Shown here in pieces: positions 7,405 to 64,000 of a DNA stretch of 64,000 bases. Source of the stretch: an uncultured Planctomycetales bacterium (GTDB lineage Bacteria; Omnitrophota; Gorgyraeia; Zapsychrales; Fredricksoniimonadaceae); NCBI GenBank assembly GCA_964583975.1, contig CAZOXU010000005.1, forward strand, positions 2,034-66,033, read 5' to 3'. The notes below the pieces were generated by a model that was given only the letters and a program-made list of their open reading frames with translations, had not been told where the DNA came from and searched no databases. A program made the position numbers and the translations under genes. How positions within the stretch are numbered: the stretch's first letter is position 1; every line of letters starts with the position of its first letter.

Positions 7405-8610
7405 ATGAAACGCATTGGTATTATCACTTCAGGCGGAGATTGTGGCGGTCTTAATGGTGTTATTAAAGGTGCAGCTTCTATGGCTCGCGCTCATGGTGTC
7501 GCTTCTTTCGTCATTCCCAACGGCTATGCCGGTCTTTACAATTTAATTAATTTTGATCATTTAACCGAATTAACTCAAGAACGTTTAGATAAAATCAATA
7601 CGAACCTAGCTGGTTCGGAAGCTGGCCACTCTAGAGTTAACATCAAAAAGATCGATGATCCTAATAAATATCAACAGATCAAAAAAGGTATGGAGAAATT
7701 CAAACTCGATGGCCTTATTATCTCTGGCGGTGATGATTCGGGCAGTGTTATGGTGGATTTAATTGAGCATGGTATTAAATGTGTCCACGCACCTAAAACC
7801 ATGGATTTGGATCTGCAAACCTATTCCGTAGGCGCTGACTCAACCATCAATCGCATTGCAACTTTCCTGGAAGACTTAAAAACTACAGCAGCAACCCATA
7901 ACCGTATCTTGGTCATGGAAGTATTTGGACGCTATGCTGGACACACTGCCTTTCGTGGTGGCGTGGCTGCAGATATTGATGCCATTATCATCCCTGAAAT
8001 CCCCTGCGATTTCGATATTCTCTATAAACATATGAAAGAACGTTATTTTAAACGTATTAAAGAAGATGATGTGCATGCTGGAACCTACATGATTGTGGTT
8101 GCTGAAGGTATTAAGGATGCTTCTGGAGCTGATATTGTAGATGAAAATGCACCTGTGGATGCTTTTGGACACAAACGTTTGGCTGGTGCGGGAAATTATG
8201 TCTGCCAACAGCTGACCAAACGCCTCAAAGCTGATAAAGAGATCACCGCCCTCATGCAATCGTCTAACATGTATGTTAAAGGAATCAATGAGATCCCCGA
8301 AGTACGTGCTGTCACCCCTGGCCATTTAGTACGCTGTGGTCACTCTAGCGCTTATGATGTTAACTTTGGTAAAGAAGTTGGGGCTGGCGCCTTTATTCTT
8401 CTGAATCAAGGCATTACAGGCGTAACTGTTGCTGGTATTAACGAGGGCACGGTTCGCTATATGGATACCAAGGAAGCCATCCAACAACGCTTTGTAGATG
8501 TCAATCAAGTCGCTATTTATGAAGCTATGGGAATGTGTTTTGGACGTATAGCCCCAAAGGCTCAAACCAAGACTGAAAAACTCAGTGGTAAAACTGAACG
8601 ACATTTCTAA
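7405..8610 (+). CDS. pfp: 6-phosphofructokinase, probably PPi-dependent
   Basis: MKRIGIITSGGDCGGLNGVIKGA is the PFK N-terminus. The ISGGDDSGS motif has Asp where ATP-dependent PFKs have GGDGS, and the GGDDS variant is characteristic of PPi-dependent enzymes. A good SD (aaggag) sits upstream. Confidence 0.8.
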   Translation: MKRIGIITSGGDCGGLNGVIKGAASMARAHGVASFVIPNGYAGLYNLINFDHLTELTQERLDKINTNLAGSEAGHSRVNIKKIDDPNKYQQIKKGMEKFKLDGLIISGGDDSGSVMVDLIEHGIKCVHAPKTMDLDLQTYSVGADSTINRIATFLEDLKTTAATHNRILVMEVFGRYAGHTAFRGGVAADIDAIIIPEIPCDFDILYKHMKERYFKRIKEDDVHAGTYMIVVAEGIKDASGADIVDENAPVDAFGHKRLAGAGNYVCQQLTKRLKADKEITALMQSSNMYVKGINEIPEVRAVTPGHLVRCGHSSAYDVNFGKEVGAGAFILLNQGITGVTVAGINEGTVRYMDTKEAIQQRFVDVNQVAIYEAMGMCFGRIAPKAQTKTEKLSGKTERHF

Positions 8611-11282: not shown

Positions 11283-12050
11283 TTATGCTTTCGCAGATGG
11301 ATTAAAGAATTCTTCCAGTAAGGTCACAAAATGTTTCTGGTCCTCAATCTTGATTAAGCGACCTTCAAAAACAATACTGATATCAGAAGTTTCCTCCGAA
11401 ACCAAGGCAATCACTGCATCGGTATGTTCACTTAAGCCCAAGGCTGCACGATGTCTTGTGCCAACCGTTTTACTCACTGTTGGATTTTCAGAAAGTGGGA
11501 ACAAACAAGATGAGGCTGCTATGCGTTCACCCCGCACAACTACCCCCCCATCATGTAAAGGAGACTGGATCATAAAAATACTCTGTAAAAGTGCTGAAGA
11601 AATCTTTGAATCAAGGGGTACGCCACTTTCAATATACATGTTTAATTTCATTTCACGTTCGATAGCAATCAAACAGCCAGTCTTACGGCTAGAAAGCTTA
11701 AAGACGGCATCAGCAATCTCATCAATCAAAGCTTTTAATTCAATCTCTCCTAAAGAAACGCTAAACAAATGTTGTTGTCCCAGCCGAGCTAGCCCAGAAC
11801 GTAATTCATGCTGAAAGATAACTACAATGACAATAATCCAAATCGAAAAGAAATTTCTTAAAAGCCAATTAAGGACTTGAAAATCAAAAATCTGCGACAA
11901 TAAAAGGGCAATAATTAAATAAGCAATCCCCTTAAGCACCTGAAAAGCACGTGTTCCTTGAAAGAATAATAAAATACGGTAGAAAACAAACCAAAGGATG
12001 GCAATTTCAAGAACAGGTTTAACAAATTCTATAAAAGGGAGATTCGACAT
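11283..12050 (-). CDS. cdaA: Diadenylate cyclase (c-di-AMP synthase, DAC domain) with N-terminal TM helices
   Basis: 255 aa. It has 2-3 N-terminal TM helices followed by a DAC domain containing HDGGVVVRGERIAAS and GTRHRAALGLSEHTDAVIALVSEETSDISIV (the DGA and TRHRAA motifs). Confidence 0.8.
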   Translation of the reverse strand: MSNLPFIEFVKPVLEIAILWFVFYRILLFFQGTRAFQVLKGIAYLIIALLLSQIFDFQVLNWLLRNFFSIWIIVIVVIFQHELRSGLARLGQQHLFSVSLGEIELKALIDEIADAVFKLSSRKTGCLIAIEREMKLNMYIESGVPLDSKISSALLQSIFMIQSPLHDGGVVVRGERIAASSCLFPLSENPTVSKTVGTRHRAALGLSEHTDAVIALVSEETSDISIVFEGRLIKIEDQKHFVTLLEEFFNPSAKA

Positions 12051-36326: not shown

Positions 36327-37070
36327 CTATTTGTGAGCTTTGAAAATAGGATCTTCTAGAACTTCACGGATGATGGCAATTGAGGCATCCAAGGTGCTTT
36401 GCCCTGGCTTAACTCCCCAATCGGTAACATCTTTACCATATACTTCTAAATCTTCTAATAATTTGCTGCGTTGCTTTTCCGTGATGGCTAAAAGCTTACC
36501 TTTATCATTTGCATTATCTTGACTTAAAAGAACCTTGGTCATCAACGCTGAGGCCTTAATAACAGACTTATCTATTTCCTTACGTTGAAGCTCCAATTGA
36601 CGCAAGGAGTTACTAAACTCCTTCTCTTCAGCTACTTTAGGTTTTGCCTTAGTTTTATATTCCAGCCAATTCTGCCACAGATCTTTAGCTTTATCATTTA
36701 AGACTATTTCCTTATCACAAGCAATGATCACTAAATCAGACACTTTCCGCATCAATTGATTGGAAGATGTTAAATATTTATTCAGATAACCTTTAATAAT
36801 TCTCAGATTAGCATTATCTAAAACATAGTATTCGATATTACCTCGAATCATCTTTAATTCATCTTTGGGGAACTTTTTCTTAGGGGGATTTTGACTCCAT
36901 CGATTCTCAATGGTTCGAAAATAACTGAGAGCCGAAATATAACTGCGGGCAAATTCATACTTATTACCATCAGGATTGTTCTTTTTAAATTCATTCTCTG
37001 CAGCCAAAACATTGGAAGCACCAATGAATATTAAAAATCCAATAAGAACATTCAAAATGATTTTATTCAT
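36327..37070 (-). CDS. Small secreted protein of unknown function, abutting the giant gene
   Basis: The track ORF starts at 37106. The internal start MNKIILNVLIGFLIFIGASNVLA at 37070 is a classic signal peptide. The rest is Lys/Glu-rich and alpha-helical. The gene sits between the giant gene's stop at 37107 and the addA-like start at 36320. Confidence 0.5.
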   Translation of the reverse strand: MNKIILNVLIGFLIFIGASNVLAAENEFKKNNPDGNKYEFARSYISALSYFRTIENRWSQNPPKKKFPKDELKMIRGNIEYYVLDNANLRIIKGYLNKYLTSSNQLMRKVSDLVIIACDKEIVLNDKAKDLWQNWLEYKTKAKPKVAEEKEFSNSLRQLELQRKEIDKSVIKASALMTKVLLSQDNANDKGKLLAITEKQRSKLLEDLEVYGKDVTDWGVKPGQSTLDASIAIIREVLEDPIFKAHK

Positions 37071-37106: not shown

Positions 37107-40100
37107 TTAAATCTTTGCTAATGCTTGCGCTTCTTTACTGATTCCAAGTAATGGAAATGGGCTTAGGATGGGTGCGATATCGATAATGACAGGTGAAAAA
37201 CCTTGAAACTCTCCTTGAAGCAATTCATCGAGTTGGGCTGGATCAAAATCAACCTTAATCGTCTTGCCAGTACGATTAATATTAATTTGATTTAAATCAA
37301 TACCACCTAGATCTTGTGATTTATTAGATCGGTTAAGCATTGCTTGATCATTTCCTTCATATAGTTGAGATTCTTCGCCATAACGAATACCCCTTAAAGC
37401 ATCTTCATACATTTGCTTACGTCTTAACCATTCTAAAGCCCCACTTGCTCGATTATGAGCTTCAACTAAATCCATTTCGGGCGTTGATTTACTTAAGAAC
37501 ATAATATCAATCAACTCTTTAGCCTTGATTACCTCATTAGAATTAAATGATTGCAAAAACCAAACAAGCGCCTTGACCAACATTTCTTCCCTAATATTGT
37601 GAGCCACCCTACGTTCATTTAAATCATCTATTGTCAAACTTTTCGAATTACCAATAAGATCCCGTGCAAACATTATGGTATCTGCCATTTGAGCTATCTC
37701 CCTAGCAGTTGCTTTGGAAGGCAATAACGACTTAGCTACTTCAAAATCCGAGACATCATTAGAAGACATCGCCCTGTCATCCCCCATTGCACTATTAAGC
37801 TTATTAAATACTTTTTGCGCTTTAATATAGGCAATATTAATAGCTGTATAAATATCATTGTTAGATCTCCTATATCCATAAATCAAATAAATAATTTCTA
37901 TGGCCTTTAAAACTTCATCATTAATCTTTGAATCCAAAAACCTAAGAAGAGCTTTTACTAAATAAGTTTCATTTGTATCATAAACTTCTAATTTAGATTC
38001 TATGTCTTTCACGGATATAATTTGATCTTTAGAGTCTACCCATTCTCGGGCAAGTCTTAAGGCATTTCCAAACCTGTAAATATTCTGTGGATTATTTTCT
38101 AGAGGTAAAAAATCTTTAGCATAATCATAAAAAGCACCTAATGCATCATTCAAAGAGGGAATCTGGCCCAATTTCTTAATACGCAATGATTTAGTATCCC
38201 AAGGAACTATTTTCGAAGGCTCCCCCTCAACAGAAGAATCAATAGCTCTAGAAGCTTTCTGGTACATTGACCTTAATAATGCACTGCGCTCATCTTTCTT
38301 TGTTTCTAAATAAATGCCATAAATTAAAGATATGGCTCGTGATTTTTCATCATCATTTCCAAATCTTAAAAACCAATCCAAAGCAATGATTAACAAATTA
38401 CGATCAAACTTTGAAGCTTTAATATCTGAATCTATTTCTTCAATTGAAAAGTTTTTTTGTTCTCTAATATATCTGTGCGCCAGATTTAAAGCGTCTCCTA
38501 ATTGAGTTAATGGTATCTCTTTATACTTGTTATCTTGCTCTTGGATCTTTTGAGCTAACTCATAACCATTGAAAACTGTTGGAGATGTTGAATCTGATTT
38601 AGAATTCATAGCTTGATCTGCAGGCACGGTGGGCTCGCTGTCCCATATACGAATTGTTTCATCAACCTTACTCTGATCAATCCATCGATCCCACTTGCAG
38701 CTCATAAGCGCTTGGCGAATGGCCCCATCTCGATCTAATGGTTTTAATCTTAAAACATATTCTTGAATAATCAAACGAGCTTGTTCTCGTACTCGATTAA
38801 TTCTTTCATTTTGAGGATTCATGGAAGCAATCAAATAGGGTACCGATCTTTCTAACTCCACAACTGACATTGTTTTTAAACTCAACATGCGAACATGGTC
38901 ATTTTGCTCAACACCATTAAATCCATGATTATTTCTTTCATCCATATAGGCATGTTGTTCCAACAATTTCCAAAATTCTCCTTTATCAAGCAAGTCTTGT
39001 CGCAATGATAATATTAACAATGCCCCTTGTCGGGCTTTCGAATAATCTCTTCCTGTCGTAGATAGTATTTCTAACAAAGCTTGAACATTCAAATCCCTAT
39101 TCACTAAAGCTCTTGCCTTGTCTCTAATATTATTATTAGCATATTCATCAGGAAATTCTTGTGCCAGCTCTTTAGCTTCCGATGATAAAGCACCCTCTTT
39201 TATAATATCCTTAGCAACTCCTTTGTCTATACCTGCACCTGACTTCCCATCCCACAAACCTATAAATCTTCGAATCCTATCTTTATCAATTTTAAAATCA
39301 TCTACTAGCGCGCTACCAAACGCACTTCTAAAACGTCCCTGCCTATCTAATTCTCTAATTTCTGCAATATATTGAATGGCTATATCTATAACTACATTTC
39401 TCACCTCTACTGACAACTCACTCTTCCAATAAAATGATTCAACCAAATAAGGAATTGCTCTACGTAAATCTAAAGCGGCCATGGTTCTTAAACTTTGAAC
39501 CCTTACAAAATTATTTCGTTCAATGCCTTTAATCCTCATTGAATTATATTGATTTTCATACGCATGTTGCACCAAGTAAGGCCAAAGATCATCCTTTTTG
39601 ATTAAATCTTTACGTAATGTAAAAATAAACAAAACTGCTTCTCGAGCCGGAGCATATTTTCGATCTGTCGTTGCTAAAACCTCCAACAATACCTTTAACT
39701 CTAGCGTTCCTTGCACAATCTCCCGCGCCTTACTATAAATTTGCTCTCCTTTCCAATGACTTAGAAACTCATCGGCAAATGCTTGCGCTTCTAGTGACAA
39801 GACTGGCTTGGAATCTGGCTGGGAAGTCATAGCATGATCTGAAACATCTGGCATTGTTGCAGAAATATTAGCCCATCGATTTACTAATTCTAAGACCCTA
39901 TCTTTATCTATCCATTGATCATATTTATAGGACAATCTTAATTGTTTCAATAATTCACCTTCTGAATCTAATCTTATTATCCAATTAAGCTTACCAGATA
40001 TAATTCTCAATATTCTTGCACGAACATCTACTATTCTTTCATTTCTAGGGTTTAATGAATGAATTAAATACGGAATTGACCTTTTTAAATCCAGCTCAGC

Positions 40101-42170
40101 CATTGTTCTTATACTTTGTAATCGAACATAATTATTCTGTTCAATACCTGGAATTCTTTTATCATTTGTATCATCACGATAGGCATGTTCTTCAAGCAAT
40201 GGCCACAAGATTTTATTCGGAATTAAATTCTTTCGAATAGATAAAATGATTAAAACCGCCTGTCTAGCCCTAGAACATCTTGCTGTTCTTGTTGCTAAAA
40301 CTTCCAACAAAAGATCTTTCTCATAATACCTTTGAGATATATCTTGTGCCTTTTTAATAACATCTTGGACTAAAAAGCTTACTGGAAACTCCTCTACAAA
40401 TTTTCTAGCTCCTTCAGATAAATAATCATCTTCGTTTAACTGGGAAGTCATGGCGGAATCTTGTGATAGTTCTTGAGCAATTTGGAGAATTCGAGGTAAA
40501 TTTCGTTCTAATTTAAGTTGAATTTCTAAGACTTTCTCGGCCATTTCTTGAGTAAAACCACCATCAATTATAAATTTAGCCGCATCCCAAAGATTCACTA
40601 ATCCAGCATTATTATCTTCTAATTTAGGTCTATTTGGCATTCGTTGAATAATTTTATGCGCCCAATCTAATAAATTTCTTAATTTAGAATAATTACTAAA
40701 CTGATCTAAAACATTTCTTAATGTTTCTGCACCTTGATCTATATTAACTTTTTTATCTGTAATTTCTGAAATCTGAAGAAAAGCCAATTCAAAGCTTACA
40801 ATTGGTTCAATAATTAAATGATTAATCCCTGTAGAATTTAAATTAGCTTTTGATTGTAAATAGCCAAACAAGCCCTTGTGATAGACGTCTTTTATTTCTT
40901 CTATTAATTTCACACCCTCTTTCTGTAAATTATCTCTCTTTGCTTTAGAAATCATTGCTACATCTGTTGCAAAATTATTTACTAATTTCACCTGCAAAGA
41001 CATCATCGCCCCATCTGCTTTAATATCAGCCTGTCTTCCATTTCTTTCTACAGGAATCTTCATCAACGTCAGTCCACCAGAGAAATACTTCCGTGGTCCT
41101 GCTGATGCTGCACCAGATCCAACGTCAGTTGGATCTGGGTCCTTAATGTAATTAAACACACCCTTTTTATAGGCTTGCAGATAGCGCTCGTATATCTGTT
41201 GTTTTATCGCAGGGTCGTTAAGATTAACACCTGCCACCTTGTTCTTATTGGTATACACTGCATCTAAAAGACCATTTTGAATGGTTTCCTTGTACCATTT
41301 AGCTAAGATCAATGCATCGTAGATTTGACGAAGTGGGGCAAAGTTCTTTCCCTGATTGACTTCTTTGGTGATTTCGGGAATGACAATCTCACGGATGATT
41401 TGGCTTCCGATTTGATTGGATTCGCGTACGGGCGGGGTTTCCTCGCCCTTATTAGGGCTGGGTGACCCAGCCCGTACATTATTCTTTGACATCGCCAAAT
41501 AATCCTCATCCAACATGACCTTCAAGGTTGATTTGGTCACGTAGGCCGCTGGTGGAACATTTCCGCCAGAGGCGGATCGACCTGCGGCCGACTCATACAC
41601 CTGCGCTTGATCTGGTAGAATCCATACCTTGTTAAAAGTATTGACTGGAACATCCGTGGTGCCAAATTGCTCTTGGGCTTTTTTGTAGACTCTACTCCAA
41701 AACTCCTTGCCTAAATCCTTCTCTGGGTAAATCAGCGAGGCAGTCAATTGCTTAAGGATATAGTCTTGGGCTAATAGATCACGACCTAGCTCGGTTTCAC
41801 CTAAAGACTGGGTAGTCATGCGGTCTTTTTCATAAGGTGAAAGATTGACCCATAAATCACCTTCTGGGATGGTTAGGCCAGCTAAGAAGTACTTCACTAA
41901 TCTTTCTGCCTCTTCTTGATTAGGGCTGCTAGCTGCCCCTACCGAGCCAGTGTCTACGATAAATTGAAATTCCAGAGGTTTCTGGGGATTAACAATAATA
42001 CCTTTTAAAGCTAGGGGTGTAAAAGCTGCTGATGGCCCTACCATGACTCCTGGCTCGGGCAGCTGTAGTAGGGGCACGGCATGCCGTGCTCCTACATCCG
42101 CATAGGAATACTGTAAGTTGCTGCAAATAAATGACATGCAGACTATAGAAGAAATCAAACGTTTGAACAT
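37107..42170 (-). CDS. Giant secreted modular protein (1687 aa): signal peptide, conserved N-terminal module, 3 x ~200-aa HEAT-like tandem repeats, further helical modules, conserved C-terminal ~75-aa module
   Basis: The signal peptide is MFKRLISSIVCMSFICSNLQYSYA. The N-terminal 365 aa and the last 75 aa are clearly homologous to the partial ORF at 60607..64000. Three internal repeats share ATTxRxYxxARxAxLxIxxLRxxLxxxxxWxxLxxHAYxxxxNxxxIxGxExNxxVRxQSxRTMAxLDLxRxIPYL. Confidence 0.85.
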   Translation of the reverse strand: MFKRLISSIVCMSFICSNLQYSYADVGARHAVPLLQLPEPGVMVGPSAAFTPLALKGIIVNPQKPLEFQFIVDTGSVGAASSPNQEEAERLVKYFLAGLTIPEGDLWVNLSPYEKDRMTTQSLGETELGRDLLAQDYILKQLTASLIYPEKDLGKEFWSRVYKKAQEQFGTTDVPVNTFNKVWILPDQAQVYESAAGRSASGGNVPPAAYVTKSTLKVMLDEDYLAMSKNNVRAGSPSPNKGEETPPVRESNQIGSQIIREIVIPEITKEVNQGKNFAPLRQIYDALILAKWYKETIQNGLLDAVYTNKNKVAGVNLNDPAIKQQIYERYLQAYKKGVFNYIKDPDPTDVGSGAASAGPRKYFSGGLTLMKIPVERNGRQADIKADGAMMSLQVKLVNNFATDVAMISKAKRDNLQKEGVKLIEEIKDVYHKGLFGYLQSKANLNSTGINHLIIEPIVSFELAFLQISEITDKKVNIDQGAETLRNVLDQFSNYSKLRNLLDWAHKIIQRMPNRPKLEDNNAGLVNLWDAAKFIIDGGFTQEMAEKVLEIQLKLERNLPRILQIAQELSQDSAMTSQLNEDDYLSEGARKFVEEFPVSFLVQDVIKKAQDISQRYYEKDLLLEVLATRTARCSRARQAVLIILSIRKNLIPNKILWPLLEEHAYRDDTNDKRIPGIEQNNYVRLQSIRTMAELDLKRSIPYLIHSLNPRNERIVDVRARILRIISGKLNWIIRLDSEGELLKQLRLSYKYDQWIDKDRVLELVNRWANISATMPDVSDHAMTSQPDSKPVLSLEAQAFADEFLSHWKGEQIYSKAREIVQGTLELKVLLEVLATTDRKYAPAREAVLFIFTLRKDLIKKDDLWPYLVQHAYENQYNSMRIKGIERNNFVRVQSLRTMAALDLRRAIPYLVESFYWKSELSVEVRNVVIDIAIQYIAEIRELDRQGRFRSAFGSALVDDFKIDKDRIRRFIGLWDGKSGAGIDKGVAKDIIKEGALSSEAKELAQEFPDEYANNNIRDKARALVNRDLNVQALLEILSTTGRDYSKARQGALLILSLRQDLLDKGEFWKLLEQHAYMDERNNHGFNGVEQNDHVRMLSLKTMSVVELERSVPYLIASMNPQNERINRVREQARLIIQEYVLRLKPLDRDGAIRQALMSCKWDRWIDQSKVDETIRIWDSEPTVPADQAMNSKSDSTSPTVFNGYELAQKIQEQDNKYKEIPLTQLGDALNLAHRYIREQKNFSIEEIDSDIKASKFDRNLLIIALDWFLRFGNDDEKSRAISLIYGIYLETKKDERSALLRSMYQKASRAIDSSVEGEPSKIVPWDTKSLRIKKLGQIPSLNDALGAFYDYAKDFLPLENNPQNIYRFGNALRLAREWVDSKDQIISVKDIESKLEVYDTNETYLVKALLRFLDSKINDEVLKAIEIIYLIYGYRRSNNDIYTAINIAYIKAQKVFNKLNSAMGDDRAMSSNDVSDFEVAKSLLPSKATAREIAQMADTIMFARDLIGNSKSLTIDDLNERRVAHNIREEMLVKALVWFLQSFNSNEVIKAKELIDIMFLSKSTPEMDLVEAHNRASGALEWLRRKQMYEDALRGIRYGEESQLYEGNDQAMLNRSNKSQDLGGIDLNQININRTGKTIKVDFDPAQLDELLQGEFQGFSPVIIDIAPILSPFPLLGISKEAQALAKI
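38600..40450 (-). repeat. Three divergent tandem coding repeats (~600 nt / ~200 aa each) inside the giant gene
   Basis: Protein-level alignment of three consecutive segments beginning ...FVEEFPVSFLVQDVIKKAQ, ...FADEFLSHWKGEQIYSKAR and ...LAQEFPDEYANNNIRDKAR; each continues with LLEVLATxxRxYxxAR...HAY...NER...W(I/D)xKDR. DNA-level identity is low, so the duplication is old. Coordinates are approximate. Confidence 0.6.
41424..41478. repeat. GC-rich nested palindromic mini-element embedded in-frame in the giant ORF
   Basis: gtacgggcggggtttcctcgcccttattagggctgggtgacccagcccgtac. The outer arms gtacgggc/gcccgtac are perfect. The inner hairpin gggctgggtgacccagccc is nearly identical to an intergenic copy at 59262-59284. 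It encodes the low-complexity linker AGSPSPNKGEETPPVRE. Confidence 0.55.
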
Positions 42171-42181
42171 TTAGAAAAGTA

Positions 42182-42205
42182 TGCCATATATTTATATATA
42201 TGGCA
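42182..42205. promoter_or_regulatory. Perfect 9-bp inverted repeat in the ppa / giant-gene intergenic region (ppa terminator and/or operator in the giant-gene leader)
   Basis: tgccatata (42182-42190) and tatatggca (42197-42205) flank a 6-nt tttata spacer, 12-35 nt upstream of the giant gene's ATG at 42170. It is followed by a T-run when read on the minus strand. Confidence 0.45.
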
Positions 42206-43041: not shown

Positions 43042-44877
43042 ATGATTAAAAACACATCCATTCATACATTTCACGTTCCAGTCATGGGAACAGCCTTCAC
43101 CATTGATAGCCCTGTTAAGGTGGCTAAATATGGGATCCATTCTGTCATATCCCTGGTGGACGATCATTTAATTGAAGAAATGCGTAAGTTTTATTGCACC
43201 AAATACGTCCAAGACTATACACCCATTACTAAATACGATGAAGATTACCGAGCCAGACGTATTACAGCCTATCTTGATCTCCTTGACTGGATTGTCCAGA
43301 AAGAATTTAATGCTGTCAAAAACTCCCAGTTTGTGCCAGGAAGCGAAATCACCAAATATTTCGAACTACTTCCTGATGATTCTGTACTAAAAGCAGCCTA
43401 TCACCACATGCTCGAATGCCAAGATGAAAAAGTCAAAGAAGGCCTCCAAAAGAACCTGCGCGAAGCGATGAAACCTGGCGATATTAACGTAAACATTATG
43501 ACCAAGTTAGATCGTGATAATTATGACTCTAAGGGCAATCTCTTGGCTCCTGAATTTTCTGATGGGCTCTCAGCCTTACGTGGTTATGCCCAAAGCCGCT
43601 TAAAATCCTGTATCATCTTCTCAGCTGGTTTTAACCGTCGTCTTTATGGTTATATTGAAAACTTCAAAGATTTCTATGCAGATGCCACGGGTGAGATCAA
43701 AAAGAAAATCATTTTAAAGGTCAGCGATTTTCGCTCCACCCTGATTCAAGGCAAATTCTTGGCCAAAAAAGGCCTGTGGGTTTCTGAGTATCGCATTGAA
43801 TCTGGTCTTAATTGTGGCGGACACGCCTTTGCAACCGATGGTTATCTCATGGGCCCTATCATGGAAGAATTTAAAACCAAACGCCAAACGCTTATTGATG
43901 ATCTGCACAAAATTTGTAATGAAGCCTTGAAAATTAAAAACCGTTTAACAACCATCCAGCCTCATAGCGTTAGAATCACCGCTCAAGGTGGTATTGGTAA
44001 TTACAAAGAAGATTCATTTCTTCGTAAACATTACAATCTTGATGGTACAGGTTGGGGCACTCCTTTCTTGCTGTGCCCAGAAGTCACCAACGTTGATCCG
44101 GTGACCATGGAAAAACTATCAAAAGCAACCGAGAAAGATGTATATTTGAGCCCCGTTTCTCCTCTTGGCGTGCCTTTTAATAATTTGCGTGATTCTTTAA
44201 GTGATCTCGAGCGTGATATGCGCGTCATGCGCGGCCGTCCAGGCAGTGCTTGCCCTAAAAGCTATTTAGTTTCAAATACCGAATTTACTCAGCAACCTAT
44301 TTGTACAGCCAGCCGTCAATATCAAAAATTGAAATTAGAACAGTTAGCTTCTTTAAATCTCGAGCAACAAGAATACAAAAAACAATTTGAGAAGATTATT
44401 GTGAAATCTTGCATTTGTAATGATCTTGGTGAATCTGTATTAATGAATAATAAGGTCCCTACTCCTATCAATCGCTTTCCGGCTGTTTGCCCAGGGCCAA
44501 ATATTGCCTACTTTTCTAAAATTGTATCGCTCAAAGAAATGGCTGACCATATCTATGGACGTATTAATATCCTAAATAACACCTATAGACCGCATATGTT
44601 CATCAAAGAATTACGTATGTATGTGGATTATCTGCGTAGTGACGTCGTCAAATCACTTGACTCATTAAGCGATCAGAAAACTAAATATTTCGGAGAGTTT
44701 AGAAATAATCTGCTAGAGGGAATTGAATACTACCGCAAACTATTTCCACAAATGACTGATGAGAGCGTAGAATTTCGTAGTAAGATGATTAATGAACTCG
44801 AAGAGTGCAGAACAAATCTTTTAAATCTTTGCCAAGAACACGCCACAGCCTTCTCACCTGCTCTAGCGCAAGTCTAA
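43042..44877 (+). CDS. Unassigned 611-aa protein; central region resembles an FMN-type TIM barrel (nitronate monooxygenase / FabK / IMPDH-like) with extra N- and C-terminal domains
   Basis: ESGLNCGGHAFATDGY parallels the QGxEAGGH catalytic His motif of NMO/FabK, and ITAQGGIGNYKED parallels the (A/S)GGI FMN phosphate-binding motif. The remaining ~300 aa are unassigned. A TATACT box lies 6 nt before the ATG and there is no SD. Confidence 0.55.
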   Translation: MIKNTSIHTFHVPVMGTAFTIDSPVKVAKYGIHSVISLVDDHLIEEMRKFYCTKYVQDYTPITKYDEDYRARRITAYLDLLDWIVQKEFNAVKNSQFVPGSEITKYFELLPDDSVLKAAYHHMLECQDEKVKEGLQKNLREAMKPGDINVNIMTKLDRDNYDSKGNLLAPEFSDGLSALRGYAQSRLKSCIIFSAGFNRRLYGYIENFKDFYADATGEIKKKIILKVSDFRSTLIQGKFLAKKGLWVSEYRIESGLNCGGHAFATDGYLMGPIMEEFKTKRQTLIDDLHKICNEALKIKNRLTTIQPHSVRITAQGGIGNYKEDSFLRKHYNLDGTGWGTPFLLCPEVTNVDPVTMEKLSKATEKDVYLSPVSPLGVPFNNLRDSLSDLERDMRVMRGRPGSACPKSYLVSNTEFTQQPICTASRQYQKLKLEQLASLNLEQQEYKKQFEKIIVKSCICNDLGESVLMNNKVPTPINRFPAVCPGPNIAYFSKIVSLKEMADHIYGRINILNNTYRPHMFIKELRMYVDYLRSDVVKSLDSLSDQKTKYFGEFRNNLLEGIEYYRKLFPQMTDESVEFRSKMINELEECRTNLLNLCQEHATAFSPALAQV

Positions 44878-44883
44878 AACTGA

Positions 44884-46368
44884 TTAACCTAAAAATCCTC
44901 TGGCTGAACCTGCACGTGTAATAAGGTCAGTTAAATGAACGCCAAAATTCTTCTTTTGAACATTCTCGATAAGTTCACTCGAAACCTCTAGATGCTCCTT
45001 ATTGGTCTCAAATTCATATCTTTTAACCACAGATTGCAGTTGTTTTCTTAAGCTTGCAGGGACCAAACTTAACACTTCAGGGTTCCATAGGCTTAAAGTA
45101 TCTTGAAGATTGTCTTCAAATTGAGCATAGGTGCGTTGAATAAATTGAAAATCCTCATCACTCAGAGCGTTTAAACCAATAATATCGGGTGGAAGACCTA
45201 AACTGTATAAAACGGCGCAAAATGAAATAACGCGCGGCAGGGTCACTCCCTTTTTCAATTCACGAGAATATCCAAACAATCCTGTATGTAATTTTCTCAT
45301 ACGGCGAGCTGGGACAAATTTAGAGACCTCGTTGATTAGCGGAGCCAAGATTTGAATTTGGCGTTGGTATTCTTTAGACACCTTCTCAATAATCTTAAGT
45401 GCACGCTTTTCATCTTCAATACGAACTGGCGGCTGGGCTGAAGTCTGATTGATCATGGCAATTGCCTTTTGGACTTCTTGAACAGAAAAATCATACTTAA
45501 AGGCCGATTGAATCGTAAAAGTCGCCACACTAGGATATTTATTTAAAACATTTTGAACCGTTCGCGGGTTTAAATGTCCACGAAAAGGAGCGCTACCTGC
45601 CCCTAAAATAGGATAAATAGCTACCCCGGTTTCTTCTTGTAGATCATAAAGCCTTTGCAAAGCAATTTGCAAAGCCAAAATAACAGCCACGGAAGAATGG
45701 TTCATGGCTGGATCGGAACGAGCCAAGAAAACGCGCTGATGCTTGGCCTTGTTTTGTTTTAAGAATACTCTGAGCGTTTGATCAGCTGATAACATCGAAG
45801 AGACATCTTCAAACAACGGAATTACATTGATAGTCTTAGGATTAAAATCTCCGATCCACTGCCCTACCGTCAATCGCTTGTGATCCATAAAATTATGGTT
45901 TTCTTTACCAATGACAACGTTCTTATAGTAATAGTAAATCTTTTCAATGATCTTGGCATCAGCCATAGGAACAATGACTTCAAAAATTGGAGGATTTTTA
46001 CCATCGCCATAAAAAGCACGAGCCGTATCATAAGAACGAGGAATACTTTCTAAAGTCTCTAAAAGGATCTTAGCTTCAGCTTTTTCATAATCTGGATTAG
46101 GAACACGAATGGTAATAAACACATCCTTGCCCATGCGTTTCTCTTGGAAGAAGTTCTTATGTTCGGTGATTAATTTACGAATAACAAAATCGTCAGCCTC
46201 TTTGCCTTCAGAATCCCACATAATTTCTTCAACGCCAAGGTTGGAGAATGCATAAAAAGCCTCCTTGATTTCATCATCACCACGTAACACAGAATGATTA
46301 GCAAAAAATGGAATGGTGACGTTATCAGGATGCTGTGTGGACATGGTTCGAGGTATTTTGATATTCAT
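44884..46368 (-). CDS. Archaeal-type phosphoenolpyruvate carboxylase (PepcA family)
   Basis: 494 aa. The N-terminus MNIKIPRTMSTQHPDN carries the PRxMSTQHPDN hallmark of the short archaeal-type PEPC family, and the length is about 500 aa rather than 900 aa. Confidence 0.8.
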   Translation of the reverse strand: MNIKIPRTMSTQHPDNVTIPFFANHSVLRGDDEIKEAFYAFSNLGVEEIMWDSEGKEADDFVIRKLITEHKNFFQEKRMGKDVFITIRVPNPDYEKAEAKILLETLESIPRSYDTARAFYGDGKNPPIFEVIVPMADAKIIEKIYYYYKNVVIGKENHNFMDHKRLTVGQWIGDFNPKTINVIPLFEDVSSMLSADQTLRVFLKQNKAKHQRVFLARSDPAMNHSSVAVILALQIALQRLYDLQEETGVAIYPILGAGSAPFRGHLNPRTVQNVLNKYPSVATFTIQSAFKYDFSVQEVQKAIAMINQTSAQPPVRIEDEKRALKIIEKVSKEYQRQIQILAPLINEVSKFVPARRMRKLHTGLFGYSRELKKGVTLPRVISFCAVLYSLGLPPDIIGLNALSDEDFQFIQRTYAQFEDNLQDTLSLWNPEVLSLVPASLRKQLQSVVKRYEFETNKEHLEVSSELIENVQKKNFGVHLTDLITRAGSARGFLG

Positions 46369-59968: not shown

Positions 59969-60610
59969 ATGTCAAGCAAGTCTCTCGTCATTAAACAATA
60001 CGAAATCGGTCCTTTAAATAATTTTCTCTACCTTTTAGGAGATCCAGCTACCAAGGAAATGGCCGTGGTCGATCCAGCTTGGGATGCCACCTTCTTATGC
60101 CGTGAAGCCCAAAATATGGGTTATAAAATCACCAAAGTCTTTTTAACCCATGCGCATCCTGATCACGTCAATGGCCTTGATGAACTTTTACGACAACACG
60201 ATGTGCCCGTTTACATATCCCGACACGAAGCCGCTTTCTTACGCAAAAACCTCAAGAATCTCGTAGATGTGTCTGATAAAGAGAAACTCACTCTAGGCCA
60301 AATATCTTTTGATTGTATTCATACACCAGGACACACTCCAGGCTGCCAATGTTTCCTATCTCAAGGACAGCTTATTTCTGGAGATACTCTCTTTATTGAT
60401 GGATGTGGTCGATGCGATCTGCCTGGCGGGGATGCTAGAATCATGTATAACAGTCTTAATATTATTAAAAAGCTTCCTGATGACATAATTGTCTGGCCTG
60501 GTCACAACTACGGCCCCACCGTTACAGACACCATTGGTCATCAAAAACTTACCAATCCCTACTTACAGGCTTCTAGCATTGAAGAATTTTTGGGCGAACG
60601 AATGGGCTAA
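59969..60610 (+). CDS. MBL-fold metallo-hydrolase (glyoxalase II-like)
   Basis: 213 aa. HAHPDHVNG is the HxHxDH motif, and the downstream His/Asp ligands are GDTLFIDGCGRCDLPGG and HNYG. Confidence 0.85.
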   Translation: MSSKSLVIKQYEIGPLNNFLYLLGDPATKEMAVVDPAWDATFLCREAQNMGYKITKVFLTHAHPDHVNGLDELLRQHDVPVYISRHEAAFLRKNLKNLVDVSDKEKLTLGQISFDCIHTPGHTPGCQCFLSQGQLISGDTLFIDGCGRCDLPGGDARIMYNSLNIIKKLPDDIIVWPGHNYGPTVTDTIGHQKLTNPYLQASSIEEFLGERMG

Positions 60611-63600
60611 ACTTTAGCAGTAGATTCTTGCAATTGTGAGAACATTGGCAGGCTTACAGCAGGTTTGATATCAATAATAATAGGCACCAGACCTTCGATG
60701 TGAATGTTTTCTAAATCTTGCTGACTAATAGGCAATGGCACGCCTGCCCCATCACGCTTAATCTGTAAATTCAAATTCGCTGCGTTAAAATCAATACCAC
60801 CCTTATTAAAATTCTGATCAGCCACCCTCATAGCACCATCTGGATTCTGATTTGTATTTTGATTATATCTACTAACCGCCTCTGCAATATTAGAAGGAAT
60901 TTGCTGACCATCTATTGGATATAATTTATTACTTTTTACAAAATAAAATACCGATTGAGGTCCTTTGTCCGGATTGTCAATTCTACCTAAATTAAAAATC
61001 ATTCCCTCTTCTGAAAGATAATCAAGCCGTATATATTTTCCAGATATTCTTGACAAATTCATTAAATCAAAAATTTGACGATGATTATAGTTAATAACTT
61101 TTTGTGAATCTTGCTCCACATGACGCATAACAATAAAAACATTCTTTGTCACATCTTGAAGTCGAAAGGTTATATTTAAAGTATTATCTTTATTTTTTAG
61201 AGCCCACAACTGAATAAGAAACCGACTCATCTGGGCAAGCCCTTCAATTCTTGTTTCAATTACAACCTTTGAATCTTTTTTAGTAAAACCAATTGTACTA
61301 ATATCACCTATTGCAATCTCTCCTAATTCTTTTAGGTTCGAATCTAATAATACCAATTGTCCTTTTGCATTAGTATGAAGACCCAATGTGAATGTACCAA
61401 TTCTTAAGATAATCGGATCATTTTGATATAAAACTGTAGCAGCTCCGCCCATATCCCCATCATCTCGAATTGCTATAGAATGATATTGCGTGTACTGCAG
61501 ACCATGTTCAACAGATTGAAGCTTTTCAAATTCATTTAGTATTTCTTCATATTTCCTTGTTTCCTCAATGGCGCGCTCATTTGCCCCTCCAAAAACGCTC
61601 CAAACCTTAATTCGAGCTCTTAACACATCAAAATTTCTAACATCCTCAGCTTGAATATCTAGCTGATTATCGGGAATCTCTCGTGTTAAGTATTGCACGT
61701 CATCCCTAGCAACAGATAACAATAAACGTACGGCTCGGATTAATTTATCTTTCGATGCTAAATCATCTTTATTGCTTATAACCCTCTTATTTAATCCTTT
61801 AACAAATGACATTATCTTTATTTCCCAATTTTCCCGCGTCTCTCCACCGTTCATAGCAGAATCAGCGTTTGATGCCGGCTCCACTGGAATAGACCCACTC
61901 GTTGAAGCTATCTCAGACATACTTTTTTCTAAATAGTTACTAAGAGCATCGGTGAATAATTTAACATTACTAGGTGTCAGTAGACTAACACTAATTCCCT
62001 TTTTATCAGAACTAACCCTTGCAATAGGAACTCCAAACCAGAGAAACTGATCATTTTCAAATTTTAATTCTGAATTCAACTGAGCAAGCATATTTATTTG
62101 ATAGTTATCATATAAATATGCATATACAAAATGAGCTATTGAGGCCATAAACTCTTCTGGAGTATTTAACTGGCGCTCTATTTCTTCTAGAAGAGCATCT
62201 GTAACTTTACCCTCAAAGTCTTTTTTATTTGAATCGCGTAAATCTTCTATTGCCTGTCTCATCGCTTTAGCTGTTTCACCACTCGACATTGCTGCATCAC
62301 CTCTTAAATATGCATCTATTCTATCTCTTACATTTAATAAATCTGCTTTGATAGACACCCTTGTAATTCCAGATGCCTCAAAATTATTCATAGCTCGTAA
62401 TTGGCTAACCAAAACTATCTCCCTATTTTTCAACCTAAGCAATTCATTAGCTAAAGTAACTTGAAAAACATTGGAATCAATCTCGCTTATCATTTTCTGT
62501 AACTCTTCATCTTCTTGAAGAAAATCACGAAATCTTTTCTTAAACGTTCCTGCTTGTGGCCCAACGTCAGAGAACATAGATAATATTTGCATTGAATATT
62601 CATCCAAAAGTTTTCTGGTTAAAACCGGATATTCTTTTAATTTCCTAACAATTTCTTGGAAAGATTCTAGCTTATCTTTGGAAATATACATCTTCACGTA
62701 ATCTTTAGCGACCAACTCATTCAATAGAACATCAATTGCACCTCTATTTTTATTTACCCAAATACGCACCTGTTTAGGCAAAGATTTTACTTCTAAATTA
62801 GATGACAAATTATCTAGCCTACTCACTGCTGTTGCCATTGCCATGTCACTGAAGAACACTCTAGTCAAATAATCTGCCAATGCATTAGCAAATTCTTCTT
62901 TACTATAATCTTCCACCTTAACCAACCCTACATTAATACTAGCCACACGAATTCCTAAAAATCTAATGACATCTCTCTCTATTTTTATATTTTCAGGTTT
63001 AAATTTAAAAAAACCTAAATCTAACGTATTTAATAAGAATGTATTAATTCTTTCAGCAAACTTTTTTTGGAAATCATCTGAGTCAATAAAATCTCCTTTA
63101 TACAAAATGAGCCTTAAACTCCCTATAGAACTTTTCATAGAATCTTCCATCTGACGTAAGGACTGAACGGCTTCCAATACTTGACTCTTTACTTTCTCAT
63201 TCCATACAAATCCAACATCCTTATCAGAGACATAATAAGCACCACCATCTCTTAGTAAGATCAATTTATCATCTTCCTCTCTAACTAATTCGATATTATC
63301 AAACTCAATGGAAATCGTATCAAGAATATTACTAGCCTTAATAAAGCTATCCCTCACCTGCAAATCTTGAGCACTAGCAAAAATCTTTGTATTTAAACCT
63401 TTCAATATAACCCTATTCTTTTTATTCTCTAACTCTACTTTGCTACCTAAGTTTGGAATCTTAACGCTATAGATACCTTCTTCTTCAAGAACCAACTTAT
63501 CATTCGCTCTAACAACCATCGCCGCATCAGCCTCAGACTTCTCTGCCAATACAGCTTCAGCAGCATCTAGCTTTCCTGCCTCGGTGATCATAATAGGTCT

Positions 63601-64000
63601 TGCCATGGCAGAATCTGTTGTTGTGCGCATTGCTTTTCCGTATTCATTCTTGGTCCCACCCGAAAAATACTTCCTTGGCATTGGCTGATGCGTGAATTTA
63701 TCGGTGTCTTCTTTAATATAGTTAAATACACCCTTCTTATAAGCTTTGAGGTATTGCTGATAGATCGCTTCGTTGTTCTTTGGGTCTTGGTTAATTCCAT
63801 TAACCTTGGCTTTATCTGCATAAATCTTCCCTAATAAAGATTCTTTCAAAGCACGTTTATACCAGGCTGCTAAAATCATTCCGCTATACACCTGACGAAG
63901 CATGGCAAAATTCTTGCCTTCATTGACTTCTTTTTCAAGGGCTGGAAGAACGATTTCACGGACGATTTGGGAGCCGATTTGATTGGTTTCCGTAGGGGCA
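60607..64000 (-). CDS. Paralogue of the giant secreted modular protein, partial (N-terminus beyond window end)
   Basis: The minus-strand ORF stays open from 64000 down to the stop at 60607; the track's Met at 63903 is internal. The residues read ...TETNQIGSQIVREIVLPALEKEVNEGKNFAM-LRQVYSGMILAAWYKR...KYFSGG. These align to ...NQIGSQIIREIVIPEITKEVNQGKNFAPLRQIYDALILAKWYKE...KYFSGG of the 1687-aa protein. The last ~75 aa also align (GGIDFN...PIIIDIKP against GGIDLN...PVIIDIAP). Confidence 0.8.
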   Translation of the reverse strand, partial: APTETNQIGSQIVREIVLPALEKEVNEGKNFAMLRQVYSGMILAAWYKRALKESLLGKIYADKAKVNGINQDPKNNEAIYQQYLKAYKKGVFNYIKEDTDKFTHQPMPRKYFSGGTKNEYGKAMRTTTDSAMARPIMITEAGKLDAAEAVLAEKSEADAAMVVRANDKLVLEEEGIYSVKIPNLGSKVELENKKNRVILKGLNTKIFASAQDLQVRDSFIKASNILDTISIEFDNIELVREEDDKLILLRDGGAYYVSDKDVGFVWNEKVKSQVLEAVQSLRQMEDSMKSSIGSLRLILYKGDFIDSDDFQKKFAERINTFLLNTLDLGFFKFKPENIKIERDVIRFLGIRVASINVGLVKVEDYSKEEFANALADYLTRVFFSDMAMATAVSRLDNLSSNLEVKSLPKQVRIWVNKNRGAIDVLLNELVAKDYVKMYISKDKLESFQEIVRKLKEYPVLTRKLLDEYSMQILSMFSDVGPQAGTFKKRFRDFLQEDEELQKMISEIDSNVFQVTLANELLRLKNREIVLVSQLRAMNNFEASGITRVSIKADLLNVRDRIDAYLRGDAAMSSGETAKAMRQAIEDLRDSNKKDFEGKVTDALLEEIERQLNTPEEFMASIAHFVYAYLYDNYQINMLAQLNSELKFENDQFLWFGVPIARVSSDKKGISVSLLTPSNVKLFTDALSNYLEKSMSEIASTSGSIPVEPASNADSAMNGGETRENWEIKIMSFVKGLNKRVISNKDDLASKDKLIRAVRLLLSVARDDVQYLTREIPDNQLDIQAEDVRNFDVLRARIKVWSVFGGANERAIEETRKYEEILNEFEKLQSVEHGLQYTQYHSIAIRDDGDMGGAATVLYQNDPIILRIGTFTLGLHTNAKGQLVLLDSNLKELGEIAIGDISTIGFTKKDSKVVIETRIEGLAQMSRFLIQLWALKNKDNTLNITFRLQDVTKNVFIVMRHVEQDSQKVINYNHRQIFDLMNLSRISGKYIRLDYLSEEGMIFNLGRIDNPDKGPQSVFYFVKSNKLYPIDGQQIPSNIAEAVSRYNQNTNQNPDGAMRVADQNFNKGGIDFNAANLNLQIKRDGAGVPLPISQQDLENIHIEGLVPIIIDIKPAVSLPMFSQLQESTAKV

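Follow-up and report, generated by a model that had tools for sequence, protein, structure and literature searches.

A family of modular proteins with a Sec-type signal, a constant head and a constant tail around exchangeable cargo in Omnitrophota

A 64,000-nt stretch of contig CAZOXU010000005.1, hereafter the window, carries on its minus strand an open reading frame (ORF) of 1687 amino acids (aa) and, at its end, the larger part of a paralogue. The two products, the long protein (P0001) and P0213, belong to a probably exported modular family with constant, putative trafficking ends that is built entirely from undescribed parts, namely a head behind a predicted signal peptide, a variable cargo punctuated by a short motif, DxAM, and a tail. 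The long ORF proved to be exactly as the first-pass annotation, made from the letters of the window, had delimited it (37107..42170, ATG start), and its architecture, which that annotation could not place, fits no curated family. No description of the family or of its motifs was found in the literature, including the accessible text of the main Omnitrophota papers.

Constant head, tail and signal peptide

The grammar of the family was read from 332 retrieved proteins, 303 of which are complete with a tail. A hidden Markov model (HMM) of the head found exactly one N-terminal head in 332 of 332 proteins, and an HMM of the tail found a tail in 303, always at most 30 aa from the C-terminus; a tail without a head was met in none of the 332. 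The remaining 29 appear to be mostly truncated fragments. Tail-only proteins were considered and rejected, since all seven tail-only ORFs trail a truncated head ORF or abut the start of their locus and are thus read as split or cut genes; a DxAM-rich ORF in locus L066 is a family member cut at its 5' end.

The full-length product of the paralogue was recovered by the protein search from the same contig, which is 126,235 bp long. Its ~117 head residues visible in the window are 56% identical to the long protein (E 4e-36), and residues 17-365 of P0213 align to residues 3-366 of the long protein with 51% identity over 367 columns (E 3e-111), so that the common N-module of ~365 aa claimed in the first-pass annotation is real and the similarity lies far beyond chance. 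The tails resemble each other weakly in the pairwise comparison (33% identity over 66 aa, E 1e-4), and the shared C-terminus is secured at the level of the family by the tail HMM. Pairwise comparison of the two cores gave no significant similarity, in agreement with the earlier description of them as unrelated.

Across 45 aligned relatives the head is 52-73% identical to that of the long protein, with dozens of invariant residues. No His or Cys is invariant in these alignments, and a Ser/His/Asp, Cys/His or Zn protease was therefore rejected as the identity of the head. The head has no match in Pfam, NCBIfam or PADLOC and the tail none in PADLOC, and a head profile found no match on the head among PDB sequences. 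The head was modelled with a predicted local distance difference test score (pLDDT) of 74 and a predicted template modelling score (pTM) of 0.69 as a mixed alpha/beta domain with two long beta-hairpins and about eight helices, and Foldseek found no match to this fold in the PDB at E<=0.001. In a full-length model of the 722-aa relative P0131, the tail reached a pLDDT of 71-87, compared with 35-45 for the flanking cargo, and was built from one helix, two short strands and an extended segment. Towards its C-terminal end, the head has a conserved stretch with a pLDDT of ~40 when the head of the long protein is modelled alone and of 51-67, as a hairpin, in the full-length model of P0131.

The tail spans ~70-80 aa with a hydrophobic PVIINI-type segment, is present in both window proteins and follows the pattern DxAM-x8-12-GGID[LF]N.I.V.R.GK..V.FDPAQL..L.QGGFEGF.PVIINITPI.SP..LLGI....LAK[AV]; the sole strongly hydrophobic 19-aa segment of the long protein lies within it. 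The beginning of the tail is similar to the segment behind the head, GG-L.L..I.V.R.G....IK.D, so that a single small element may be present twice, with the cargo placed between its copies. The long protein is an example: its post-head sequence GGLTLMKIPVERNGRQADIKAD (40953..41078, aa 365-406) resembles the first tail hairpin GGIDLNQININRTGKTIKVDFD (37230..37349). Heads and tails each fall into two subtypes that are matched to each other (r = 0.96, with 274 of the 303 complete members concordant), and the window carries one gene of each subtype, type 1 and type 2.

N-termini were analysed by a rule-based check in 289 proteins, of which 283 have a positive n-region and a hydrophobic core and 278 an AxA-like site. 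The consensus is MFKRLIASLVCLTFSFSNLQYVHA/QDFSINQLPxPG, the slash marking the predicted cleavage point; the h-region comprises ~12-13 residues, residues -3/-1 before the conserved Gln read V-H-A, V-Q-A or A-Y-A, and variable low-complexity inserts rich in Pro, Gly and Ala begin exactly behind the cleavage point. We predict that the N-terminus is a cleavable Sec-type signal with canonical n-, h- and c-regions, all three of which were also recovered in the long protein, whose signal had been called clean in the first reading. A lipoprotein signal was rejected: the lipobox [LVI][ASTVI][GAS]C is absent from the signal end of the long protein, and the Cys in its h-region follows a Val and shows no conservation within the family. 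An RR pair occurs in the n-region of 34 of the 289 N-termini, some of them from the sister clade described below, outside the consensus of twin-arginine translocation (Tat), and a different export route such as Tat is a possibility for this Arg-rich clade.

A linker motif at module borders

The first-pass annotation had counted DxAM about nine times in the long protein and at least five times in the paralogue. Counted strictly as D.AM, the motif occurs 7 times in the former (with NSAM in addition) and 6 times in the visible part of the latter, against 0.19 and 0.15 expected from composition, so that the tally was adjusted and the strong excess over expectation stood. In the first 120 proteins, on which enrichment was first computed, there are 406 occurrences against 17 expected (23-fold) and 9-14 in permuted controls, and D.AM is the most enriched gapped tripeptide of the cargo regions (21-fold), at about one per 240 cargo residues. 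Family ORFs of the genomic loci contain 182 against 14 expected and the other ORFs of these loci 29 against 12, with 15 of the 29 located in unrecognised family fragments.

Of the 303 complete members, 202 have DxAM within 60 aa behind the head and 163 have [DN]xAM before the tail, and the motif often comes in twos or threes that are 8-16 aa apart. No DxAM lies inside a mapped Pfam domain in the five DxAM-carrying members examined; in P0003 it is found between a methyltransferase and a receiver domain and again 4 aa past a hexokinase, and in the model of P0131 it falls in low-confidence segments. DxAM is a genuine linker motif at module borders, as had been surmised from the two window proteins.

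A sister clade (P0081-P0119, e.g. P0099 and P0100) is devoid of DxAM and has SSSP[VI] in its place, after the head, between modules and before GGIDLN, together with longer Arg-rich n-regions, some with RR, and tails of type GIDGFAPVIINITPLPSVLPLLGLEP. The position of the motif is thus kept while its sequence switches between the clades, as would be expected of a recognition or cleavage site under co-evolution, and we infer that the linker motifs may be recognition or cleavage sites. Since the Ala codons of DxAM vary, as do those of x, and no Shine-Dalgarno (SD)-like sequence lies upstream, the motif is one at the protein level; a DNA-level signal or an internal start was rejected on these grounds and because SSSP[VI] contains no Met.

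Cargo modules

According to the precomputed Pfam lists of the 119 best matches to the long protein, ~40 carry enzyme domains, 27 only ankyrin, HEAT or TPR repeats, a few only a receiver or DnaJ domain, and 47 no known domain. The enzymes comprise hexokinase, cupin-type glucose-6-phosphate isomerase (GPI), phosphofructokinase (PFK), pyruvate kinase (PK), pyruvate phosphate dikinase and phosphoenolpyruvate (PEP) utilisers, nucleoside diphosphate kinase (NDK), NUDIX, glutamate dehydrogenase, aldose epimerase, RmlD and epimerases, nucleotidyl-transferases, glycosyltransferases (GT) of families GT1, GT2 and GT5, LpxC, methyltransferases, and HD, M20 and trypsin-like peptidases, to which a second protein search added cyclic nucleotide (cNMP)-binding, PP2C, low-molecular-weight protein tyrosine phosphatase (LMW-PTP), acyl carrier protein (ACP), LysM and WD40 domains. 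In six members that were re-scanned, hexokinase, PFK, PK (barrel and C-domain), NDK and GPI cover most or all of the Pfam profile, and a helix-turn-helix (HTH) domain is present as well. With the catalytic motifs GGDD/TMDND, DWGGT and MVARGD and the NDK His in place, the cargo enzymes look catalytically intact. Members are of 0.6-4.5 kaa (thousand residues), and the first 120 contain few hydrophobic segments; apart from the signal peptide and the hydrophobic segment of the tail, most of the family probably lacks transmembrane (TM) helices.

The core of the long protein contains two sets of repeats. Three tandem repeats of ~205 aa (aa 571-777, 778-~982 and ~983-1184) are 37-41% identical to one another, and units 1 and 2 open with DSAM and DHAM and unit 3 with a degenerate DKGV. 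The first-pass annotation had described them as three HEAT-like repeats of ~200 aa; the repeats themselves are borne out, whereas the HEAT_2 profile matches at E 0.012 and 16.3 bits, below the Pfam cut-off of 27.7. It had missed a second set, three ~140-aa repeats at aa 1185-1607 with 26-31% identity, of which units 1 and 3 open with DQAM and DRAM. By analogy, the repeats are predicted to be helical, and both window cargos look like orphan helical repeat modules, scaffolds or binders more than enzymes.

Modules are shuffled within the family. The 205-aa module recurs in P0085 and P0086 and the 140-aa module beside PFK in P0011, yet the 1205-aa core of the long protein, used as a database query, matched itself only; the cargo is thus exchanged and fast-diverging, whereas head and tail are frozen. 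A free-standing PFK encoded in the window (7405..8610, plus strand) is just 30% identical to the PFK cargo of P0011, so that the simple fusion of a close housekeeping gene does not account for the cargo enzymes.

Size, distribution and genomic arrangement

A database search with the whole long protein gave more than 3,849 significant matches. Among the 119 matches listed, nearly all besides the query cover ~20-28% of it, which corresponds to the head, and P0085 reaches 45%. An exhaustive HMMER scan with the head detected 7,830 clusters at 50% identity (E<=1e-3) and 6,097 at E<=1e-30, so that the constant ends around variable cargo proposed from the two window proteins extend to a family of thousands of clusters, named only from metagenome-assembled genomes of Omnitrophota. 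Nearly all of the 150 best clusters listed have the head at residues ~25-400, the few exceptions looking like N-terminally truncated or mis-started proteins, and the members of these clusters range from 447 to 4,553 aa; the term giant, used earlier for the long protein, is therefore relative, as members reach at least 4,553 aa.

A genomic scan with one genome per species yielded at least 594 confirmed matches, and all locus analyses refer to the best 79 of these. The source names of the 119 best protein matches are all Candidatus Omnitrophica or Omnitrophota. Among the 79 loci, 56 are labelled Omnitrophota, Omnitrophica or Ca. Aceula, which is an Omnitrophota genus, and 23 are Third Party Annotation (TPA) bins labelled 'uncultured Planctomycetales', which are probably Omnitrophota with a placeholder taxonomy label. 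By these names the family is so far restricted to Omnitrophota. Bins named 'uncultured Planctomycetales bacterium' with typical members are L005, L007-L009, L013-L017, L021, L026, L040, L041 and L057, and likewise L061, L064, L066-L068, L071, L074, L078 and L079.

Up to six of the 79 loci come from a single assembly, and in 22 two or three family genes with different cargo follow each other on the same strand (e.g. L007, L044, L050, L052, L058 and L070), which suggests local duplication and cargo exchange. Clustering of the neighbour ORFs revealed no conserved non-family gene across the 79 loci, and a conserved partner gene was rejected, the neighbour clusters being only antisense shadow ORFs of the head. 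Such long antisense ORFs over the head region occur in 24 of the 79 loci; they are a coding-sequence artefact and could be miscalled as genes.

Features of the window

The coordinates of both family genes are collected in Table 1.

Table 1. Parts of the long gene and of its paralogue in the window.
Feature	Coordinates	Strand	Details or basis
Whole gene, type-1 member of the head-cargo-tail family (P0001)	37107..42170	-	1687 aa and stop codon
Predicted cleavable Sec signal peptide, aa 1-24: MFKR / LISSIVCMSFICS / NLQYSYA, cleavage before D	42099..42170	-	rule-based reading of the sequence
Conserved head, aa ~25-370, LPxPG to KYFSGG	41061..42098	-	many invariant residues (e.g. WVNLSPxE, DY..KQ, KYFSGG)
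Post-head segment, aa 365-406, GG-LTLMKIPVERNGRQADIKAD, then first DxAM pair	40953..41078	-	weak tail-HMM match at aa 365-391
Cargo module A, aa 407-570, unique helical segment	40461..40952	-	no homologue found
Cargo, three tandem ~205-aa repeats, aa 571-1184	38619..40460	-	E 1e-42 and 6e-40
Cargo, three ~140-aa helical repeats, aa 1185-1607	37350..38618	-	E 6e-7 and 4e-6
Conserved tail, aa 1608-1687: DQAM-x10-GGIDLN...FDPAQL...GFQGFSPVIIDIAPILSPFPLLGI...LAKI-end	37110..37349	-	tail HMM
DxAM site DGAM, aa 386 (post-head segment)	41004..41015	-	motif scan
DxAM site DVAM, aa 403 (post-head segment)	40953..40964	-	motif scan
DxAM site DSAM, aa 571, begins 205-aa repeat 1	40449..40460	-	motif scan and repeat alignment
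DxAM site DHAM, aa 778, begins 205-aa repeat 2	39828..39839	-	motif scan and repeat alignment
DxAM site DQAM, aa 1185, begins 140-aa repeat series	38607..38618	-	motif scan and repeat alignment
DxAM site DRAM, aa 1465, begins 140-aa repeat 3; NSAM (aa 1459) 6 residues upstream	37767..37778	-	motif scan
DxAM site DQAM, aa 1608, directly precedes tail	37338..37349	-	motif scan
Paralogue P0213, type-2 member, 1380 aa in full	60607..64000	-	window holds aa 251-1380 and stop codon; start beyond window
C-terminal third of paralogue head, P0213 aa ~251-365	63655..64000	-	alignment to long protein
Paralogue tail, type 2: DGAM...GGIDFN...GLVPIIIDIKPAVSLPMF...AKV-end	60610..60840	-	alignment and subtype analysis

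The long gene sits within a long same-strand run of housekeeping genes, with an inorganic pyrophosphatase gene upstream and an AddA/AddB-like helicase-nuclease pair downstream. Elsewhere the window encodes ThiC, Nramp, isoleucyl-tRNA synthetase (IleRS), MreB, the free-standing PFK and others, among them an archaeal-type PEP carboxylase (44884..46368, minus strand; PEPcase_2, E 7e-178) in a bacterial genome. Nearly all sizeable ORFs lie on the minus strand, the G+C content is 35-45% and the GC skew is negative in every 2-kb bin, and the window as a whole seems to be part of a single replichore with a pronounced strand bias; no tRNA genes were found in the 64 kb.

A perfect AT-rich palindrome, TGCCATATATAT-AAAT-ATATATGGCA, with a T-rich run (42182..42205, minus strand) stops 11 nt short of the start codon of the long gene, in front of which no SD-like sequence is visible; it could be the terminator of the upstream pyrophosphatase gene or a regulatory hairpin. 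A small ORF of ~247 aa from its ATG (36327..37070, minus strand) follows 36 nt downstream of the long gene, with a signal-peptide-like N-terminus, MNKIILNVLIGFLIFIGASNVLA/AENE..., and no Pfam or PADLOC match; no non-family ORF recurs beside the family genes of the 79 loci, against which this small ORF itself was not searched. On the plus strand, a 611-aa ORF (43042..44877) has several Cys-containing motifs, no Pfam family and just noise-level Cas7-like matches in PADLOC (E 0.004), and the sole other sizeable plus-strand ORF of this stretch encodes a 213-aa protein of the metallo-beta-lactamase (MBL) fold (59969..60610). A CdaA-type diadenylate cyclase, with a DAC and a CdaA N-terminal TM domain, is encoded at 11283..12050 (minus strand), indicating c-di-AMP signalling in this organism.

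Discussion

We favour, with a probability of about one half, a reading in which these Sec-exported proteins serve delivery or display, with the head and tail as a constant device for targeting or assembly and with modules that act in another cell. The signal peptide would direct the protein through Sec export, after which the tail would dock on the head, its own or that of another molecule, and the pair would steer the protein with the intervening cargo towards the envelope, the surface or an exit from the cell. The place of action would be a different cell that serves these ultra-small epibionts or predators as prey or host, and the linker motifs, as recognition or cleavage sites, would release the modules. 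Another cell is the likeliest place because much of the cargo is of a cytoplasmic type (hexokinase, PFK, pyruvate kinase, NDK, NUDIX, response regulators, HTH, DnaJ and ankyrin, HEAT or TPR repeats). Members of the Omnitrophota are ultra-small and show traits of host dependence or predation (PMC10066038), and RNA of the predator Ca. Velamenicoccus archaeovorus has been observed inside dead prey cells (PMC13153191); taken together with the cytoplasmic-type cargo and the export-type signal, these traits and the predator RNA in prey favour delivery. The processing motif and the host-interaction or cell-surface system suggested by the first-pass annotation are both plausible in this light.

Such release would follow a logic like that of the multifunctional-autoprocessing repeats-in-toxin (MARTX) proteins, assembled from unrelated parts. 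MARTX proteins of the Vibrio RtxA type have constant ends, a shuffled effector array with short linkers as processing sites and cargo that differs among paralogues and strains; the Omnitrophota family is alike in its constant N- and C-terminal regions around swapped modules joined by linkers, with cleavage being putative here. MARTX proteins also carry glycine-rich repeats-in-toxin (RTX)-type repeats and an internal cysteine protease domain (CPD) and are exported by a type I secretion system (T1SS) without a Sec signal, whereas the window proteins have neither RTX repeats nor a CPD, carry a Sec-type signal and gave no MARTX or RTX match in Pfam or NCBIfam, and the head, the tail and DxAM share no detectable similarity with them. 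A bolder form of the favoured reading, a new delivery or surface-assembly system, can be put forward only tentatively. A split head-tail clamp of novel fold would be its universal address label; any string of folded modules of cytoplasmic type, complete hexokinase, PFK, pyruvate kinase, NDK and response regulators among them, could be set between the two parts, and it would leave through Sec and be released into prey or host at DxAM or SSSPV.

Several points weigh against delivery to another cell. Export, DxAM cleavage, head-tail docking and delivery are all inferred from sequence and models; no secretion machinery or protease is linked to the family genes in the neighbourhoods of the 79 loci, and a head without invariant His or Cys is not an obvious self-processing protease. 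The high pLDDT of the tail may reflect conservation in the alignment instead of docking, and the correlation of head and tail subtypes may be simple vertical descent and is partly shaped by the way in which the two protein sets were retrieved. It is paradoxical to find ATP-dependent enzymes and DNA-binding domains preceded by a Sec signal, and a cytoplasmic role is possible. The taxonomic restriction, moreover, was observed just in 79 loci, the best ones among 594 or more matches to genomes.

The likeliest alternative, although we consider it unlikely, is a surface coat or fibre, for which the proteins would be exported without being delivered. Tails would insert into the heads of neighbours, and the resulting polymer or lattice on the cell surface would display repeat scaffolds and enzymes, with the linkers as spacers or as cross-linking or modification sites and not as cleavage sites. 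One head and one tail per protein, strictly at the two ends, would suit such an assembly, and the conservation of both across paralogues is unusually high, as expected for co-assembly; the tail is confidently modelled yet mostly extended, as if draped on another domain, the subtypes of head and tail are matched and there are several paralogues per genome. Flagellins and chaperone-usher pilins are comparable in having a conserved terminal assembly interface, a hypervariable displayed middle and possibly a donated terminal peptide, but there is no similarity in sequence or fold, no assembly genes lie nearby, and polymerisation is purely hypothetical. ATP-dependent kinases, response regulators and HTH domains, in addition, would have no obvious use outside the cytoplasm.

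It is less probable again that the proteins are periplasmic polyprotein precursors, in which the head-tail frame would serve just export and the control of folding, and a protease would cut at DxAM or SSSPV. The freed modules would then work within the cell itself, in a periplasm or compartment that is enlarged or specialised. Motifs located at module borders in low-confidence linkers, which switch between clades while their position is kept, would be expected of a co-evolving protease site, and strings of several enzymes are common in the cargo. A 2026 preprint on Omnitrophota also places, in its accessible text, the same Pfam repertoire in the periplasm for giants bearing signal peptides or TM helices (10.64898/2026.06.07.730766). 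However, we found no protease candidate, no such compartment is known in Omnitrophota, and nucleotide-dependent enzymes would be without substrates in a normal periplasm.

In a further alternative the N-terminal hydrophobic segment would be an uncleaved anchor or a membrane-association helix, and the cargo would work within the cell as a membrane-bound metabolon or signalling hub, with the head and tail as a regulatory or oligomerisation clamp. In its favour, the cargo is overwhelmingly of a cytoplasmic type and looks catalytically intact, and the accessible text of the same preprint reads many long Omnitrophota proteins as anchored in the inner membrane with cytoplasmic domains. We regard this as improbable: an h-region of just ~12-13 residues with positive charge before it and A-x-A and Q after it is typical of Sec signals that are cleaved and leave the C-terminus outside, the variable inserts start exactly past the predicted cleavage site, and a free-standing PFK is encoded in the window, so that the fused copies need not be housekeeping.

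As far as their accessible text goes, this preprint describes Omnitrophota proteins of at least 10,000 aa with many TM helices, signal peptides and 'multi-enzyme metabolic clusters', and West-Roberts et al. (10.1101/2023.11.21.568195) describe proteins of more than 30,000 aa in the same phylum. These giants share with the present family hexokinase, ROK, NUDIX, methyltransferase, response regulator, starch synthase/GT1 and HEAT/TPR domains together with a signal peptide, and differ in their many TM helices and in size, at least 10,000 aa compared with 1687 and 1380 aa for the window proteins; no conserved head, tail or linker motif is reported in the accessible parts of either work. The head-cargo-tail family may be the common, smaller form of the giant-protein phenomenon, and the multi-enzyme giants of at least 10 kaa may be an extreme form of the same grammar.

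Cargo proteins of the type IX secretion system (T9SS) likewise combine an N-terminal Sec signal with a conserved C-terminal element of ~70-100 aa on unrelated cargo. Their C-terminal domain (CTD) is an Ig-like beta-sandwich, they have no universal N-terminal head and the T9SS is found in Bacteroidota and relatives; the T9SS sorting-domain models (Por_Secre_tail / TIGR04183-type) gave no match at E<=1 on the window proteins. Chlamydial polymorphic membrane proteins (Pmp) and autotransporters are exported as well and form large families of paralogues within the Planctomycetes-Verrucomicrobia-Chlamydiae (PVC) group, in which short motifs (GGA[ILV] and FxxN) are repeated, but their motifs and architecture are different, no Pfam match to them was found, and the C-terminal element has ~70-80 aa compared with the ~250-300 aa that a beta-barrel needs. 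Polymorphic toxins (CdiA with two-partner secretion (TPS), Rhs; VENN and PxxxxDPxGL motifs) resemble the family in their conserved trafficking part, junction motif and multiple copies. In those systems a variable C-terminal toxin is followed by an immunity gene, whereas the variable part is central here, the cargo is metabolic, signalling or repeat and not toxins, and no toxin-immunity arrangement was seen, the C-terminus being a conserved tail with no conserved downstream gene across the 79 loci. Pfam and NCBIfam detected no TPS or Rhs core in the window proteins, there is no Pfam match to the N-terminal TPS domain, which is a beta-helix in contrast to the mixed alpha/beta head with its long helices, and no transporter is adjacent to the family genes.

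A substrate of one of these known routes (T9SS, type V secretion system (T5SS) autotransporter or Pmp, TPS, RTX/MARTX) is thus very improbable, since the conserved C-terminal ~80 aa (T9SS-like), the N-terminal ~350 aa (TPS-like) and the effector arrays (MARTX-like) are superficial likenesses, no Pfam or NCBIfam model of such families matches either window protein even at E<=1, a beta-barrel would need more length than the tail has, the head is alpha/beta and not a beta-helix, RTX repeats and a CPD are absent and no partner transporter lies nearby.

Omnitrophota are widespread, uncultured and ultra-small, and their predatory or parasitic lifestyle has been deduced mostly from giant genes and pili. 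The family gives a tangible and tractable way into the question of how other cells are affected by them, in the form of an expressible 345-aa head domain, a candidate sorting tail and a short linker motif. Its members are at present named after the Pfam domain of their cargo ('NUDIX hydrolase', 'hexokinase', 'response regulator'), which can mislead metabolic reconstructions of the phylum. If the cargo truly leaves the cell, bacterial effectors would gain a new class in the form of complete glycolytic and nucleotide-sugar enzymes, and, if delivery is true, a predator would rewire the metabolism of its victim with its own enzymes; if the cargo stays, a Sec-type signal on such enzymes would point to an unusual cell organisation.

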